In this document: piece after piece, positions 10,361 to 16,608 of the stretch
How positions within the stretch are numbered: the first letter of the stretch is position 1
Layout of the letters: each line of letters opens with the position of its first letter
Source of the DNA: Candidatus Methanomethylophilaceae archaeon
Lineage (GTDB): Archaea > Thermoplasmatota > Thermoplasmata > Methanomassiliicoccales > Methanomethylophilaceae
Assembly: GCA_050944155.1 (NCBI GenBank)
Contig: JBMNQN010000012.1
Coordinates: 1 to 29,197 of the forward strand
Length of the DNA stretch: 29,197 nt
Direction of reading: 5' to 3'
Translations under genes and position numbers: made by a program
Notes under the pieces: generated by a model
What the model was told of the DNA's origin: nothing
The model's input: only the letters and a program-made list of their open reading frames with translations
Databases searched by the model: none

Positions 10361-10416
10361 AGAGTGCCTCCGGCGGAACCGTACTCTGAATATGTGGTAT
10401 TAAAGACTGTCGATAT

Positions 10417-11733
10417 TCAGGTACGACCATTGACGAATTCAACCGGCTGACATACTCCCATTCTTTTCAGCGGTTTGGAGAGGTGGCGTCTTGCGGCTAC
10501 GGGGGGTTCGTACCATCCCGGAACAACCTGTCTGACTTTTTCTTCGGTCACCGGTTTTTCCGAAAAGGTTCTGCATCTTCTGCAGCGGTATCCTTTGTCC
10601 TTTCCGACGGATTCCATGGTTTTTCCGCATCCCGGACAGACAGGATTGGAAATTTTCGAAATTTCGGGTACGACGGATATCACTTTCACCTTCTCTATAT
10701 TAAGAGTTCTGGGTTCTTCCCTCAGTTCGCCCATAACTCCGATACTGTCTCCGGGACAGAGCCAGTCGAAAAGATATCTGAACTCTTTGGAAGGTTCGTA
10801 CGCCGCACATTCCAGTTTTCCGTATTTCGTTTCGATTGTTACGAAAACGTGTCCTCCCTCTATTCTTTTGACGGATTTCACGGTTCCTTCGATATAATAG
10901 GAACTCATGGGAGTCGGAATTTTCGGATTTCTGATTATGTGATCGTCGGTTCCCTGATTCGTAAGAAAGATCATTTTTCTTTCGAGGTCTTCCGTAACTA
11001 CGGTTTCCGAAGCGGGAAACAGTACGGAAGGATCGTCTCCCCTGAGGCCGTACATAACGGGACAGGGAGTGGCCGGAATCATGGCAACCTTATGAAATCT
11101 GGGTTCCCAGCTGTTGAAAGTCGAAGAAAAAGAAGAATCCATTCTGCCTATGGATTCGGAATCGAATATGCGTTCGGTACCCCATCTCTTTTCCGGACGG
11201 TAAGCTATGAGTTCGAAAGTACGGTCTCCGGGTCTCCAGGCCATTCCGCATAAACTGCCCGTAAGTCCCCGTCCGTTTCCCCACGTATGCGTCAGAGCTC
11301 CGATTCTTTTGATTTCTTTGTCTATTTCTTCCCGTTTTACTATCGTTCTGACGCCTTTTGTGTAAAAGGACCGGGAAGGTTTTACCGAAGAAACAATCAA
11401 ACCGGAATCAGAATCTTTCTGACGGAATTTTTCCGTTATCGGAATGACCGAATCCAAAAGTTCTTTCGGATCCGGCTCTCTTGTTTTCTGTTTTTCGAAA
11501 CAAAAAATATCTCTGTTTTTTATTCTTCCGATTTTGATTTTTTTACCGGTTCCGTAACCGAATTTCAAAGATAACGAACCGTTTCCTCTGGTTTTCCATG
11601 GAACGGCGGGATTCAGACGGACGAGTCTCGGGTATCCTATAAGATCCAAATCCACGGATCCGATTATTTCGGTGGCGAGAAAGGTCGTGCATAATCCTTT
11701 CGGGGAATCGGTGTCGTCTACGGAAAGATACAC
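10417..11733 (-). CDS. tiaS: tRNA(Ile2) 2-agmatinylcytidine synthetase
   Basis: SVDDTDS..GLCTT, PRLVRLNPAVPWKTRGNG, TNQGTDDH, OB fold (GGHVF, AAYEP), zinc ribbon CPGC..CRRC, RRHLSKPL. GTG start with GGGAG upstream. Confidence 0.96.
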   Translation of the reverse strand: MYLSVDDTDSPKGLCTTFLATEIIGSVDLDLIGYPRLVRLNPAVPWKTRGNGSLSLKFGYGTGKKIKIGRIKNRDIFCFEKQKTREPDPKELLDSVIPITEKFRQKDSDSGLIVSSVKPSRSFYTKGVRTIVKREEIDKEIKRIGALTHTWGNGRGLTGSLCGMAWRPGDRTFELIAYRPEKRWGTERIFDSESIGRMDSSFSSTFNSWEPRFHKVAMIPATPCPVMYGLRGDDPSVLFPASETVVTEDLERKMIFLTNQGTDDHIIRNPKIPTPMSSYYIEGTVKSVKRIEGGHVFVTIETKYGKLECAAYEPSKEFRYLFDWLCPGDSIGVMGELREEPRTLNIEKVKVISVVPEISKISNPVCPGCGKTMESVGKDKGYRCRRCRTFSEKPVTEEKVRQVVPGWYEPPVAARRHLSKPLKRMGVCQPVEFVNGRT

Positions 11734-11759
11734 ACTCCCGTTCAGAGCATCCGATTATT

Positions 11760-12065
11760 TTAGGTGTACTCTATCAAAATCATATTTTTTACGAAAAACA
11801 TACTTCCGTCTTCGGAATATTCGCCGTTCACTCTGTAAACGGACATATTTTTCGGCTTTTCTCTGGAGAAGCATTTTTGTGTCGTTCCGTCCGAAAAATC
11901 CATCAGAAAAACAAATCCGTTTTCGGTTTTTCTGACATCGTGCACTATTCCTTCCGTATTTTCTTCGTTCTCTTCTTCTCCGTTTACGGATACCCAAATC
12001 AAAGAAAATAACAAAACCAAAAATAACCCTGTTATGAAATATCTGTCTCTCAAAAAATCCGTCAT
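11760..12065 (-). CDS. Small hypothetical membrane-anchored protein, possible OB-fold-like beta domain
   Basis: ATG start, one N-terminal TM segment (YFITGLFLVLLFSLIWVSV), acidic linker, beta-rich tail; ends 26 bp before tiaS on the same strand. Confidence 0.65.
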   Translation of the reverse strand: MTDFLRDRYFITGLFLVLLFSLIWVSVNGEEENEENTEGIVHDVRKTENGFVFLMDFSDGTTQKCFSREKPKNMSVYRVNGEYSEDGSMFFVKNMILIEYT

Positions 12066-12119
12066 AACGGGTTATTTTTCCCGTTTAATAGGAAATATAC
12101 CGTTACAATTAGTATAAAG

Positions 12120-12145
12120 CCCCCCACCCCTTCATTTCCACTGGA
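12120..12145 (-). promoter_or_regulatory. Origin recognition box (ORB) 1
   Basis: Minus strand reads TCCAGTGGAAATGAAGGGGTGGGGGG, matching the archaeal ORB core TCCAGTGGAAA plus G-string; lies upstream of cdc6. Confidence 0.9.
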
Positions 12146-12425
12146 GAAGGGAGAAAATAAATATTTTTCAGAAAAAATTCAGAAATACGTACCTATAACG
12201 TAAAGAATGCCTACGAATGCAGCTATTCCGAGTACGCACGCACTGATCACACTGATTGCTTTTTTGTTCATTGTTTTTCACATTCCTTGATTGGAAAGGG
12301 TTATTGTCTTTACTCAAATAAATAAACCTATCATTCTTCTTCCGGTAAAAAAATCAGATAACCAATCCAACCTAGAAAACTCTTATATGTATGATATTTA
12401 TTCATAGGAAACTGCGGTATTTCCT
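12146..12425. other. AT-rich non-coding region: probable oriC / DNA unwinding element and cdc6 promoter
   Basis: Longest intergenic stretch in the window, visibly AT-rich, lying between ORB1 and cdc6. TATA-like TTATAT at 12383-12388 with a purine-rich BRE-like run upstream. Confidence 0.72.
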
Positions 12426-12431
12426 ATGAAT
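12400..12431. repeat. Perfect 12-bp inverted repeat overlapping the cdc6 start codon
   Basis: ATTCATAGGAAA (12400-12411), 8-nt spacer CTGCGGTA, TTTCCTATGAAT (12420-12431). Confidence 0.8.
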
Positions 12432-13661
12432 GAAGAAGAATCCATTTTCAAACCGTTTATCGAAAAAAGAAATGCTCTCGTAAAAAATAAAAGAATTCTT
12501 CAGTCTTCATATATACCGGAACAGCTGCCTCACAGAGAAGAATAGATAAAAGAAATAGTAAACATTTTGGCGCCTTCTCTGGGAAGAGATAAACCTTCCA
12601 ATATTCTGATCATAGGAAAAACGGGAACCGGAAAAACGGCAGTTATGAAATACATAGGAAAAGAGCTGAAAAAAGCCGATGTCGATGAAAAAAACTGCAG
12701 TTTTATTTATTTGAACTGCGAAGTAGTGGATACTCCTTACGGAATGCTTTACAATATCGGAAATCAAATAATAAAAGACGAAACAAAAAGTATTCCTTTT
12801 ACGGGATGGAGTTTGGACAGAGTTTTCAATGAACTTACCAAATATATAGACAAAGAAAACAAAATTTACATCATAGTTCTTGATGAAATAGATAGATCTT
12901 TTCAGAAAAACGGAGACGACATTTTCTACTTTTTAACAACAATAAACGAAATAATGGAAAATTCCAGAGTTTCAATAATAGGAATAAGCAACAATCCTAA
13001 ATTCACGGATTTTCTCGATCCGAAAATAAGAAGCAGACTGGGAGAAGAAAAAATAATATTCCCTCCTTACACCACAACTCAGTTACAGGATATTCTTCTT
13101 GACCGTTCCAAAGACGCTTTCGAAAAAGATGTTATTTCCGACGGAGTGATATCTTATTGTGCAGCATTGTCTGCTCAGGATATGGGCGATGCAAGAAGAG
13201 CTTTGGATCTTCTCAGAATAGCTTCAGATATTGCCGAAAGAAACGGAGACAAAGTAGTCACTGAAGCTCACGTGAAATATGCAAAAAATAAAATTGAATT
13301 GGATGCTGTTTCCGAAGTAGTAAGAACTCTTACTCCTCAATCCAAAACCGTTCTGATGAGTATAGTAATCAATACAGAAAACAACAACTCGACCATGAAT
13401 ACTGGAGACGTTTTTACAACTTACAAATACATCTCCGAAATTCTCGGAACTTCCGTACTTACGCAGAGAAGAGTTGCAGGTCTCATTTCCGAATTAGATA
13501 TGATGGGTCTTATTCACGCCAGAGTAAAATCTTTCGGAAGAGCCGGAAGAACAAGAGAGATAGAACTGGGATCCAAAGACGTTGTGGATCTGATTAAATC
13601 CGACGACCTTTTCAAGAAACTCAAAAATTACAAAAGTGTCAAGCAGACAACTCTTATTTGA
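12426..13661 (+). CDS. cdc6: Orc1/Cdc6 replication initiator, 411 codons, with an in-frame TAG at codon 40 (probable pyrrolysine readthrough)
   Basis: From ATG 12426: MNEEESIFKPFIEKRNALVKNKRILQSSYIPEQLPHREE*IKEIVNILAPSLG, continuing in frame into GKTGTGKT (Walker A), IVLDEID (Walker B), RSRLG, GDARRALDLLR and a C-terminal winged helix (ISELDMMGLI..SFGRAGRT). Confidence 0.93.
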
Positions 13662-13667
13662 TGTGTT

Positions 13668-13693
13668 TCCAGTGGAAATAAAGGGGTGGGGGG
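13668..13693 (+). promoter_or_regulatory. Origin recognition box (ORB) 2
   Basis: TCCAGTGGAAATAAAGGGGTGGGGGG, 25/26 identical to ORB1 in the opposite orientation, 6 nt after the cdc6 stop. Confidence 0.9.
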
Positions 13694-13700
13694 GTTGCCC

Positions 13701-13739
13701 CGAAAAATGAATTTCAGTTGTCTGTTTCTTCATTTTTCG
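13701..13739. repeat. 11-bp inverted repeat between convergent cdc6 and fmdE (possible terminator or protein-binding site)
   Basis: CGAAAAATGAA (13701-13711), 17-nt spacer, TTCATTTTTCG (13729-13739). Confidence 0.55.
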
Positions 13740-13787
13740 ACGACTCATATATAAGAGGGCCGATGCACGAAAATACAAACAAAATTT

Positions 13788-14327
13788 TTACATCCATCCC
13801 CTGTCGTATGACTTAAAACACGAAAGACAGACCTTTTTTCCTTCCTGAAGACGGATCATATCTTCTCTTGTTTTTTCTTTGCAGTTTTCGCAGCGGACAC
13901 TTTCGAAAATTCTTGCTTTTTCCGGAAGTTCGAAATCCGGTTTCTTGAAAAGGAATACTTCTTCGGCCGGAGATTTCAGTATTTTTTTTGTTAATTCTTC
14001 TCTTCCGAGATTCTCCCATTCGGCAGGAAAATCCGTTACGACTCTGATACTTTTTCCGCTTTTTCTCGAAAAGAAAGAGTAAGCGCTTTTGCCTCTGGGT
14101 CTGAATATAAGATTTCCTTTTCCTGCCGTGCAGGACAGCAGATACTGTATACAGTCGATTCCGCAGGCATCGTTTTCGGAAACACATACCAATTCTTCGT
14201 CGGCGGCTCTTTCCATGGGAATGTTCATTTTATCCATCGCAGCGAAAGCAGCGGCAAAACCTATGGCGAGACCGGGACAGCTGTGTCCGTGAAAATCGAT
14301 ACATTCTTTCCAGAGTTTTTCGTCCAT
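13788..14327 (-). CDS. FmdE/FwdE-family protein with C-terminal zinc finger
   Basis: FHGHSCPGLAIG, ENDACGIDCIQYLLSCTAGKGNL, C-terminal CENC...CLSC. Confidence 0.92.
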   Translation of the reverse strand: MDEKLWKECIDFHGHSCPGLAIGFAAAFAAMDKMNIPMERAADEELVCVSENDACGIDCIQYLLSCTAGKGNLIFRPRGKSAYSFFSRKSGKSIRVVTDFPAEWENLGREELTKKILKSPAEEVFLFKKPDFELPEKARIFESVRCENCKEKTREDMIRLQEGKKVCLSCFKSYDRGWM

Positions 14328-14363
14328 GGATTCGCCATAATATTTTTCATAATATAATACTTA

Positions 14364-14391
14364 GTGTTACTATATACTAAAATATTAATAC
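14364..14391. promoter_or_regulatory. Putative NikR-like operator in the divergent fmdE / ABC promoter region
   Basis: GTGTTA-N16-TAATAC has the half-site character and 16-nt spacing of the E. coli NikR operator GTATGA-N16-TCATAC, and encloses the TATA-like TATATA. Confidence 0.5.
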
Positions 14392-14413
14392 GAACAGCGT
14401 ACTTTTCCGAAAT

Positions 14414-15781
14414 ATGAACCAAAAGATGATTTTGGCGATTATCACCACGATCATTGTGGTTTCTGCCGGTGCAGTATACGTAATTTCCGAAGATTTCGTA
14501 AATAAGGAAGAGTACGACAGCAAAATCACGGATATGGCCGGACGCACGGTGGAATATAACAGTAATCCCGAAAGAATCGCTTTGCTCGGTCCCAGCGCAC
14601 TGAGACTTTATTGTTATGCAGGGGATATGGACAAATTGGTCGGTATCGAAAGCATAGAATACGAATGGGGAAGGTTCGAAGGCCGTCCGTATATGCTTGC
14701 CTACAAAGATTATTTCGAAACCCTGAAAACGGACATAGGTTCAGGAGGACCCCGCGGAGTTCCGGATTTTGAAAAACTTCTGGATGCCGATTTGGATGTT
14801 CTTTTTACGACTCAGGGTATGGAGGTTGCCGAACTTGACAATCTTCAGAATAAAATCAGAACTCCCGTAATCAAATTATCTTACGGCAATAACGCACCCT
14901 TCGACGAAGACATTTACAGATCGATGGAAATTATCGGTAAAGTATCCGGTTCCCAGGAAAAAGCTGACAATGTCATCAATTACATCAAAGGAATCAAAAA
15001 CGATTTTAATACACGCACCGCGGACATACCGGAATCCGAAAGAGCAACCGTGTACATAGGAGCTCTTTCTTACGGCGGTGCCCACGGTCTCGAGAGTACG
15101 ACGAGATCTTACAATCTGTTCCAAGAACTTAACATCAAAAATGCTTACGACGAAAAGCTGAAAGAACTGAACAAGGATGTCGGGCAGGAACTGCATCGCG
15201 TCGACTGGGAGTTCGTTCAGGAAGTCAATCCGGAATACATAGTGGTAGACGAGGGTGGTCTCGATCTCGTTCGGCAGAATTGTGCAGATTTTCCCCAAAG
15301 ATACGATAATATGAACGCGTTTATGAACGGAAACGTGGTTGTTCAGATGTCGTTCAACTGGTATGCCAGCAATCTGGAGATGATTCTGGCCAACGGGTAT
15401 TTCATAGGAAAAACCTACTATCCGGAGAAATTCGCAGATGTCGACATGAAAGAAAAATTCGACGAAATCACTACCAATATGCTCGGTAAAGCTCTTTACG
15501 ACGACGTGAAAAAGGAATATGTATACAGTTTTGACACTTGGAACACCAAATCCCATACCGTAACGTATCCCGGCGTTTCCGAAGACTATGTTTTGGAAAA
15601 GGGAGCCGAAGGCAGTCTGTTCAGAGGGAAGGAAATATCCTTCTCCGTGACACCCGGCGAAGGAAAAACCGTTACGGTAAAAGTCAACGGTACGGAAATA
15701 GAAGGTACGGACGGAAAATACTCCTTCAAACTGATGGGAGATTCCGTCATATCCGTAGAGACGTCTTCGGGCGGGGTGTAA
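14414..15781 (+). CDS. Metal-chelate (Fe-siderophore/cobalamin class) ABC transporter substrate-binding protein with extra C-terminal beta domain
   Basis: N-terminal anchor, ITDMAGRTV..PERI, DKLVGIE, DFEKLL..DVLF, VDWEFVQEVNPEYI (class III SBP); about 75 additional C-terminal residues. Confidence 0.9.
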   Translation: MNQKMILAIITTIIVVSAGAVYVISEDFVNKEEYDSKITDMAGRTVEYNSNPERIALLGPSALRLYCYAGDMDKLVGIESIEYEWGRFEGRPYMLAYKDYFETLKTDIGSGGPRGVPDFEKLLDADLDVLFTTQGMEVAELDNLQNKIRTPVIKLSYGNNAPFDEDIYRSMEIIGKVSGSQEKADNVINYIKGIKNDFNTRTADIPESERATVYIGALSYGGAHGLESTTRSYNLFQELNIKNAYDEKLKELNKDVGQELHRVDWEFVQEVNPEYIVVDEGGLDLVRQNCADFPQRYDNMNAFMNGNVVVQMSFNWYASNLEMILANGYFIGKTYYPEKFADVDMKEKFDEITTNMLGKALYDDVKKEYVYSFDTWNTKSHTVTYPGVSEDYVLEKGAEGSLFRGKEISFSVTPGEGKTVTVKVNGTEIEGTDGKYSFKLMGDSVISVETSSGGV

Positions 15782-15783
15782 AT

Positions 15784-16608
15784 CTGCTGACGCTCGAGGA
15801 CATCAAGAAGGGATGGGATTCTCCTTCCACGTATTATCTCCAGGAGTGCGCCTGGGACGAGTCCGCGGGACATTACGCGGATTTTCCGATACCGACGGTA
15901 GACGACAACGAATTTCTGAGACTCGTCACGGAGGTTCACGAAGGCGGTCCTTCGGAAACAGCTTTGGACGTGGGCTGCGGAACCGGTCAGTATTCCGTTG
16001 CTTTGTCCGGAAGTTTCGGCAGAATCGTAGGGGTGGATTTTTCCGAGAATATGATAAAAACAGCGAAACGCCGCGCAGCGGAAAACAAAGTTTTCAACGT
16101 GGAATTTTACAAAAGAGACTGGAAGTCCATGACCGCGGACGATCCTCTGCTGAAGGACGGTTACGACATGGTTTTTGCCCATACCACTCCCGCGGTGTCT
16201 GATGCCGCTTCTTTTTCCCTGCTGGTTGACGTATGCAGAGGAACGGGCTTCTGTTCCACGCCCGTAAGGCGCAGGGACGGCCTGCTTGCCGAAATGTGGA
16301 AGGAACTCGGATACGATTACGACGGCAGGTTCGACGACAGCGACGCGATACGCAGGTTCGGTCTTCTCTGGCTCAGAGGATTGAATCCGATGATGCATTA
16401 TGAAAAAGACGTTGTATGGAACGAAGACAGACAATTTGAAAAAGCGATACAGATATGCACGAGAGACGTTTCGAGACGTCTCGGACCGGATTCCGGAAAG
16501 GAGAAAGAAGTCGAAGAATTTCTCCGTTCGAAAGCCGGAGACGAAGGAATCGTAAGTTCGGTGACGAACACGGAAATCGCCACGGTTTATTGGAAGGTTG
16601 GAGTGTGA
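15784..16608 (+). CDS. Class I SAM-dependent methyltransferase (start uncertain, probably CTG)
   Basis: Motif I ALDVGCGTG, VGVDFSENMI, YDMVFA. No in-frame ATG/GTG/TTG between the SBP stop and motif I; CTG CTG follows an SD-like GGGGTG. Confidence 0.85.
   Translation: MLTLEDIKKGWDSPSTYYLQECAWDESAGHYADFPIPTVDDNEFLRLVTEVHEGGPSETALDVGCGTGQYSVALSGSFGRIVGVDFSENMIKTAKRRAAENKVFNVEFYKRDWKSMTADDPLLKDGYDMVFAHTTPAVSDAASFSLLVDVCRGTGFCSTPVRRRDGLLAEMWKELGYDYDGRFDDSDAIRRFGLLWLRGLNPMMHYEKDVVWNEDRQFEKAIQICTRDVSRRLGPDSGKEKEVEEFLRSKAGDEGIVSSVTNTEIATVYWKVGV

Follow-up and report, generated by a model that had tools for sequence, protein, structure and literature searches.

The origin-linked replication initiator gene orc1/cdc6.1 of one Candidatus Methanomethylophilaceae archaeon carries an in-frame amber codon, TAG, at a position where other strains of the species carry CAG. 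The gene lies on a contig of 29,197 nucleotides (JBMNQN010000012.1 of assembly GCA_050944155.1), which was analysed over its full length and is called here the window. Apart from the TAG, orc1/cdc6.1 is an intact family member with a full-length profile match, and the TAG allele is private to one lineage. With a probability of roughly 0.55 we regard the allele as a recent CAG-to-TAG change that is read as pyrrolysine (Pyl)—in effect a Gln-to-Pyl missense polymorphism, with no evolved control device attached to it. We infer that UAG is translated here as Pyl and that the product works. The features on which the argument turns are these:

12426..13661, + strand: the orc1/cdc6.1 frame, 411 codons plus stop, with the TAG as codon 40 (from translation and profile matches)
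12543..12545, + strand: the in-frame amber codon TAG; CAG in conspecific strains, which also have G for A at 12542
12567..13661, + strand: a TTG-started open reading frame (ORF) of 364 amino acids, the gene-caller product when TAG counts as a stop

A sequence-only reading of the window had placed a TAG at 12543-12545, as codon 40 of a frame otherwise open from ATG 12426, with the ORF track starting only at TTG 12567, and had described the segment upstream of it as a normal Cdc6 N-terminus and the rest of the gene as intact. Translation of the window bears out the first of these statements: the TAG is the sole interruption of the frame, in the codon context CCT CAC AGA GAA GAA TAG ATA AAA, or, in the protein motif, between LPHREE and IKEIV. 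The N-terminus is equally well founded. With residue 40 read as K for the NCBIfam profile search, TIGR02928 matches residues 19-381 of the 411-position translation at 407.9 bits (cut-off 181.3), and NF001625 matches residues 5-408 at 491.5 bits, slightly below its equivalog cut-off of 501; both matches span codon 40. Since residues 1-39 fall inside the family profile, the upstream frame is no chance open stretch. Full-length conspecific proteins have exactly these residues at their N-terminus, and the codon bias of 12426-12575 is 0.12 in the cdc6 frame as against -0.73 and -0.37 in the other two frames of the same strand. The remainder of the product shows the Pfam domains AAA (60-207), Cdc6_lid (221-287) and the winged helix Cdc6_C (297-382), and a Walker A motif, GKTGTGKT, whose loop comprises residues 64-71, and a Walker B-like VLDEID can be read off the translation. 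Overall the gene product is 99% identical to the 411-residue conspecific proteins P0001-P0004. On the window's own contig, gene callers have produced proteins of 364 (P0009, JGI/IMG) and 368 residues (P0122, NCBI).

TAG in one lineage, CAG in its relatives

The window was compared over 11800-13900 with Logan contigs, one each, from four conspecific runs belonging to four studies (X4, X9, X14 and X15), of which three are DNA runs (metagenome, landfill, biogas fermenter) and one, X15, is a metatranscriptome. All four independent runs read GAG CAG (Glu-Gln), with G at 12542 and C at 12543, and each differs from the window at 4 to 10 other letters over 2.1 kb. The sequence-only reading had asked whether reads would show CAG; for other strains they do, in every one of these runs. 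Full-length protein forms with Gln at residue 40 are found on 26 contigs (22+2+1+1) in the protein collection. Full-length orthologues from the same genus have Gln without exception (11/11; CAG in 7, CAA in 4); the motif could be located at 25 of the 29 orthologue loci searched, with Gln in 20 and Glu in 5; and each of the seven further metagenome loci of sister species that include the region has CAG. Across the order, an orthologue is present at E up to 1e-80 in 213 of 251 genomes. The count of internal stops covers the 150 matches listed, 64 others being outside the list, and returns one, the window itself, with none in the other 149.

With CAG in conspecifics and relatives, the TAG is a derived C>T change at 12543. 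The neighbouring difference, in codon 39, is synonymous (GAA in the window, GAG in the runs), and both GAA and GAG occur among relatives. Conspecific DNA was also sought among JGI/ENA metagenome contigs: an exact scan with a degenerate 34-mer found 0 stretches, and a protein-guided scan of metagenome contigs yielded nine loci, all from other species at 85-90% identity and none conspecific. In a relative 91-95% identical, represented by one 16,169-base ENA contig, cdc6.1 is present in pieces of 265 and 88 residues (P0123 and P0125); about 48 residues are absent between the two, indicating a frameshift, gap or other disruption, and position 40 is Gln.

The TAG allele is probably real and no lone assembly error. 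A second, 22,475-base JGI/IMG contig gives a 364-residue call from the equivalent TTG (P0121) that differs at residue 185, and a 10,519-base Logan contig, the work of a different assembler, gives a 338-residue call from Met74 (P0124); truncations of this kind are the calls expected if the TAG is present there too, which suggests that it is. Within the gene there are 12 variable sites among conspecifics, 8 of them synonymous third-position changes, 3 conservative and one the TAG/CAG site itself, and some of the window's alleles recur in the RNA run X15. Such mostly synonymous variation points to natural strain variation under purifying selection, unlike assembly error. The window, P0121, X15 and X4 also form a four-gamete pattern (TAG/CAG with I185/V185), a hint of recombination that we left unused, a chimeric consensus being equally able to create it.

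Reading of UAG and the competing explanations

The genome assembly, 92% complete, consists of 27 contigs that total 1,039,042 bases. One of these, the 4.6-kb contig C25, carries in a row a partial mtmB at its edge, a CUA tRNA-like element, pylS, pylB, pylC and pylD. The four pyl proteins exceed their NCBIfam profile cut-offs: PylS with 273 bits (cut-off 178), PylB 420 (348), PylC 300 (248) and PylD 204 (150). The tRNA-like element upstream of pylS spans 72 nucleotides and folds as a cloverleaf (minimum free energy -32.1 kcal/mol, z -1.28) whose anticodon is CUA and whose D-loop has 4 bases. Only this block stands out as conserved, at 90-97%, in 14 of 15 genus genomes. Its assignment as pylT is by position, fold and conservation; tRNA(Pyl) of an atypical form, also having a D-loop of 4 bases, is known in this order (Borrel et al. 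2014, PMC3941956). Of the pylTSBCD cassette expected by the sequence-only reading, then, pylS, pylB, pylC and pylD are in place and pylT is putative. Of mtmB, the assembly contains no more than the final third (C25:1-477; profile positions 292-450). The pylB gene (C25 1562-2617) itself ends in TAG, readthrough of which would add 19 codons and create a 59-nucleotide overlap with pylC; Pyl-containing PylB in other archaea is mentioned by Kivenson et al. 2024 (bioRxiv 10.1101/2024.09.30.615893).

TAG has almost ceased to serve as a stop in this genome. It terminates 45 of 891 ORFs of at least 100 amino acids, and, among 981 ORFs passing a codon-bias filter, 8, as against 740 ending in TGA and 233 in TAA; three of the 8 are upstream parts of frames that continue beyond the TAG. 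The filter is a home-made codon-bias screen, distinct from the published Kivenson pipeline. This scarcity matches the published pattern of Methanomethylophilaceae in which all TAG codons mean Pyl. Given that TAG has nearly vanished as a stop and that the Pyl genes are present, UAG is most likely read by Pyl-tRNA(CUA).

We also screened for genes interrupted by a stop, demanding 35 open codons on each side, so that TAGs very early or late in a gene are missed. By Pfam and profile matches, a TAG spanned by a domain is present in cdc6 and in an RNase III-like gene; the absence of a methyltransferase TAG from the output of the screen follows from the loss of most of mtmB at the contig end. Forty candidates were run against Pfam, and 34 proved to be TAA or TGA cases in which adjacent genes share one frame. 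Readthrough of a TAG giving an out-of-frame overlap, of 90 nucleotides, was met in one case, on contig C24. In the RNase III-like gene (C5:47997) the TAG is at residue 301, inside Pfam Ribonucleas_3_3 (215-341). One other species of the genus has a TAG at a different codon of its RNase III-like gene, both codons being at variable positions, and the gene has none in 14 other genomes of the genus. Two further in-frame TAGs, at C1:45602 and C15:2618, have coding-like flanks and no Pfam match across the codon; one of the genes concerned encodes an MscS-type channel whose N-terminal region is long, and the other a secreted repeat protein of large size. A MIP (aquaporin-type) gene, C16:14308-15111, contains both a TGA (C16:14470) and a TAG (C16:14866) within Pfam MIP 34-260, and for that reason is probably a pseudogene. 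The xanthine/uracil permease gene at C20:7706 has a TAA at residue 301 inside Xan_ur_permease (91-389) and represents either a nonsense-disrupted transporter or an assembly error.

Position 40 appears able to accept a lysine derivative. Of the 119 closest homologues of at least 390 residues, 85 have Lys there and the other 34 Gln, and the equivalent position in solved structures is Gln (2qby_A), Glu (2v1u_A) or Ile (2qby_B); the occurrence of Lys, Gln and Glu makes a lysine derivative plausible there and near-neutral. No structure resembling a pyrrolysine insertion sequence (PYLIS) follows the TAG: the next 108 nucleotides fold at -14.7 kcal/mol (z +0.60), with 141 of 200 shuffles as good or better. 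A PYLIS-like stem-loop is present in mtmB and is not required in general. In Methanomethylophilus alvi (M. alvi), proteomics placed Pyl at the TAG in 12 of 15 expressed predicted Pyl proteins, and no other residue (Kivenson et al. 2024). Near-cognate readthrough by tRNA-Gln(CUG), restoring Gln, was considered as well: genes for tRNA-Gln with CTG and TTG anticodons are present and a low level is possible, but it would be superfluous alongside a cognate Pyl-tRNA.

These elements can be put together as follows. In one lineage a C>T change at 12543, beside the synonymous A/G difference at 12542, would have turned CAG (Gln) into TAG in a host that appears to be a small-genome Pyl decoder of the Methanomethylophilaceae type, where TAG is almost gone as a stop. 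The full-length initiator would still be made, with Pyl at a surface-tolerant position held by Lys, Gln or Glu in relatives; and the allele would have arisen by drift, like the singleton Pyl codons of related archaea, with no regulatory link. Amber decoding was the route to a full-length initiator proposed by the sequence-only reading, and decoding as Pyl is the most plausible form of it. Set beside termination and artefact, readthrough as Pyl appears the most likely of the three outcomes.

Several points tell against this explanation. UAG is read both as a stop and as Pyl in Methanosarcina acetivorans (PMC12626013), so readthrough may be partial. The CUA tRNA-like element is not called by ARAGORN, nor by Rfam at E up to 1, and searches of the 92%-complete assembly found neither mtbB nor mttB. 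Interruption of conserved genes by TAG only is not cleanly borne out: with one TAA (permease) and one TGA (MIP) inside domains, TAG, with three domain-internal cases, is not clearly enriched over TAA and TGA together, with two; and those two stops, which Pyl could not rescue, mean that nonsense disruption of genes does occur in this assembly. As to the allele itself, the TAG on the contigs of P0121 and P0124 is deduced from truncated calls and not from their DNA, and the possible source runs of the window, X1-X3, contain a share of 0.97, not 1.0, of the sampled words.

The competitor that survives best, though we think it unlikely, is a null or hypomorphic allele: translation would stop mostly at codon 40, and the allele would be young, mildly deleterious and risen in one bioreactor population. 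Survival would then depend on Orc1/Cdc6.2, on restart at TTG 12567 or Met74, or on origin-independent replication. Some Euryarchaeota, namely Haloferax volcanii and Thermococcus kodakarensis, can do without origins and Cdc6; this we count in favour of a null allele, along with the intact Orc1/Cdc6.2 paralogue on contig C3, the TAA and TGA disruptions of other genes and the stop meaning that UAG retains beside Pyl in M. acetivorans. TAG is, moreover, missing from all four other populations, as a deleterious variant would be. Termination may yield a 39-residue peptide together with either no initiator or a restarted product. Efficient termination at UAG is nevertheless unlikely in a genome that has pylSBCD and a putative pylT and in which fewer than 1% of coding-like ORFs end in TAG. 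The gene bears no damage besides the TAG, its variation running at 8 synonymous to 3 conservative changes, and Cdc6.1 with its origin recognition boxes (ORBs) is kept in all relatives searched. Restart fares no better: a product begun at residue 48 or 74 would be missing the LPHR segment, which is conserved, or the Walker A loop as well, and reading of the sequence reveals no Shine-Dalgarno-like motif ahead of TTG 12567.

Rather improbable is that the TAG is an error of consensus, polishing or strain mixing, or a minor variant, the true gene having CAG. This would fit the presence of CAG in all four independent runs and the incomplete share of words in X1-X3; the exact 364-residue product, moreover, occurs on one contig only, the window's own, two adjacent differences (AT versus GC) are unusual, and all 15 variable sites listed in the run comparison are transitions. 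It fits less well with P0121 and P0124, whose truncated calls agree with the same TAG in spite of a different protein sequence in the one and a different assembler in the other. The window's other private differences, too, are mostly synonymous third-position changes, some common to X15, and since relatives have both GAA and GAG at codon 39, the change next to the TAG can be a polymorphism of greater age.

We consider it more doubtful still that TAG and CAG segregate with UAG acting part as stop and part as Pyl, the amount of Orc1/Cdc6.1 and the firing of the origin scaling with charged tRNA(Pyl). If true, this would make the TAG a newly born natural conditional allele under methylamine-driven pyl expression, and the cell Pyl-addicted, a stop codon being recaptured as sense in an essential gene in real time.

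Very unlikely, finally, is the idea raised by the sequence-only reading, a selected device tying replication initiation to Pyl or methylamine supply, or selected for lock-in of the expanded code: an amber codon early in an essential-type gene at the origin would suit it, as would the response of pyl expression to methylamines in M. acetivorans (PMC12626013), but the TAG is found in none of the four runs, the 11 genus orthologues or the 149 other order-wide matches listed, no PYLIS-like structure follows it, and the published view (Borrel et al. 2014, PMC4153887; Kivenson et al. 2024) sees in lock-in a side effect of drift rather than something selected for. As the TAG is not conserved, an evolved coupling is unsupported, nor does the cdc6 TAG show that methylamine metabolism and the cell cycle have become linked through evolution. 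The lock-in idea is not new, having been printed for other essential genes.

The origin around the gene

The sequence-only reading took the gene for an origin-linked Orc1/Cdc6, and it is the origin-linked copy, as a pair of ORBs and a minimum of GC skew attest. The features of this region are:

12117..12145, - strand: ORB with G-string upstream of cdc6, one arm of a 29-nucleotide inverted repeat
13668..13696, + strand: ORB with G-string just 3' of the cdc6 stop, forming the repeat's second arm
10400..15800, no strand: low-GC island around the origin, GC 0.33-0.47 versus about 0.52 for the genome
12394..12402, + strand: TATA-like A/T-rich box, about 28 nucleotides upstream of ATG 12426, read from the sequence

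The ORB pair flanking cdc6.1 forms a 29-nucleotide inverted repeat, 93% complementary, in which each arm consists of TCCAGTGGAAA followed by a G-run. The core TCCAGTGGAAA has five matches in the window at up to 1 mismatch, as against 0.75 expected, and it matches the ORB consensus printed for Methanomassiliicoccales, in which ORBs flank orc1/cdc6.1 (PMC4153887). The cumulative GC skew reaches its minimum at about 14.0-14.6 kb of the window, at the cdc6 region, and in three complete relatives the chromosome record opens almost directly with the orthologue, which is situated at bases 98, 599 and 127. In X14 and X15, short contigs of depth 1110 and 26 bridge the ORB cores 12126-12145 and 13668-13687 via 197 other letters; from such high-depth bridging the core is evidently common to other, more abundant organisms or loci in those runs.

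The GC content of cdc6 is 0.33-0.39 in all 11 same-genus orthologues and ranges from 0.25 to 0.57 in more distant ones. Low GC in every genus orthologue makes it ancestral, and horizontal import of a low-GC cdc6 was rejected on that ground. Around the gene are TiaS, a small ORF, an FmdE-like protein and a periplasmic binding protein. The TATA-like box, by its placement, may give a leaderless cdc6.1 mRNA. The contig of the RNA run X15 starts at 12435 and 12155-12367 is without cover, which is a weak hint, as contigs of this kind cannot reveal the true 5' end. The second paralogue, Orc1/Cdc6.2, at C3:33116-34270, is 27% identical to the first, scores 239 bits with TIGR02928 and is stop-free; two Orc1/Cdc6 copies have been reported for Methanomassiliicoccales (Borrel et al. 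2014, PMC4153887).

Relation to known Pyl proteins and initiators

As an initiator the protein has close structural relatives. Sulfolobus solfataricus Orc1-1 (2qby_A, E 5.6e-95) and Aeropyrum pernix ORC1 (2v1u_A, E 2.2e-88) match over nearly the full length and share the LPHRE motif, the AAA+ fold and the winged helix, but have Gln or Glu where the window has TAG. The arrangement of the gene between ORBs is that described for Methanomassiliicoccales (PMC4153887).

Among Pyl proteins the classic cases are the methyltransferases MtmB, MtbB and MttB. They would have in common with cdc6.1 the decoding of UAG via tRNA(Pyl) and PylS, and a partial mtmB adjoins the putative pylT here. Their TAG, however, is conserved across archaea and catalytically required—the methyltransferase variants O334A and O334K are inactive in vivo (PMC12626013)—whereas the cdc6 codon is unconserved and its position tolerates Lys, Gln and Glu.

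Closer parallels come from 'Ca. Methanomethylophilus alvus', for which Borrel et al. 2014 (PMC4153887) report 1.6% TAG stops and 16 predicted extra Pyl proteins other than methyltransferases. The very low use of TAG as a stop is alike (0.8-5% here, according to the ORF set), and so are amber codons in conserved housekeeping genes that lack counterparts in relatives; the source of the data differs, an isolate-derived complete genome there and the metagenome-assembled genome of another genus here. Orc1/Cdc6 is absent from that list of 16. A full-text literature search, judged by the titles and abstracts of the papers it gave, did not show it as a Pyl carrier, although the Kivenson supplement of 1903 predicted Pyl proteins may hold one; in the main text of that preprint, cdc6, orc1 and replication have 0 occurrences.

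It was Kivenson et al. 2024 who proposed Genetic Code 34, a term found in the literature only in their preprint. The window's genome has the likeness of their archaea with singleton Pyl codons, namely pylTSBCD (with pylT putative) and a near absence of TAG stops, and its TAG within a conserved gene for a protein other than a methyltransferase, flanked on either side by homologous sequence, resembles their 'Category 1'; judged on the Pyl genes, the TAG scarcity and this internal TAG, the genome appears to fit the Code 34 kind. Nearly all the new Pyl proteins they describe occur in one genome only, as does the cdc6 TAG. In M. alvi Pyl was confirmed by proteomics; the cdc6 case here is predicted from sequence.

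If the allele is real and read as Pyl, an origin-bound initiator joins the housekeeping proteins able to carry pyrrolysine. Annotation under code 11 mis-describes cdc6.1 as a truncated initiator of 364, 368 or 338 residues. For other genes it has already been argued in print that Pyl decoding, or the cassette, becomes indispensable once an essential gene contains an amber codon (Borrel et al. 2014, PMC4153887; Kivenson et al. 2024). Unlike the Kivenson singletons, the cdc6 TAG is polymorphic within its species, with CAG in all four other populations, and would be at or soon after its birth: a Pyl codon caught while still polymorphic, with natural TAG/CAG strain pairs in which readthrough efficiency, fitness cost and lock-in could be compared.

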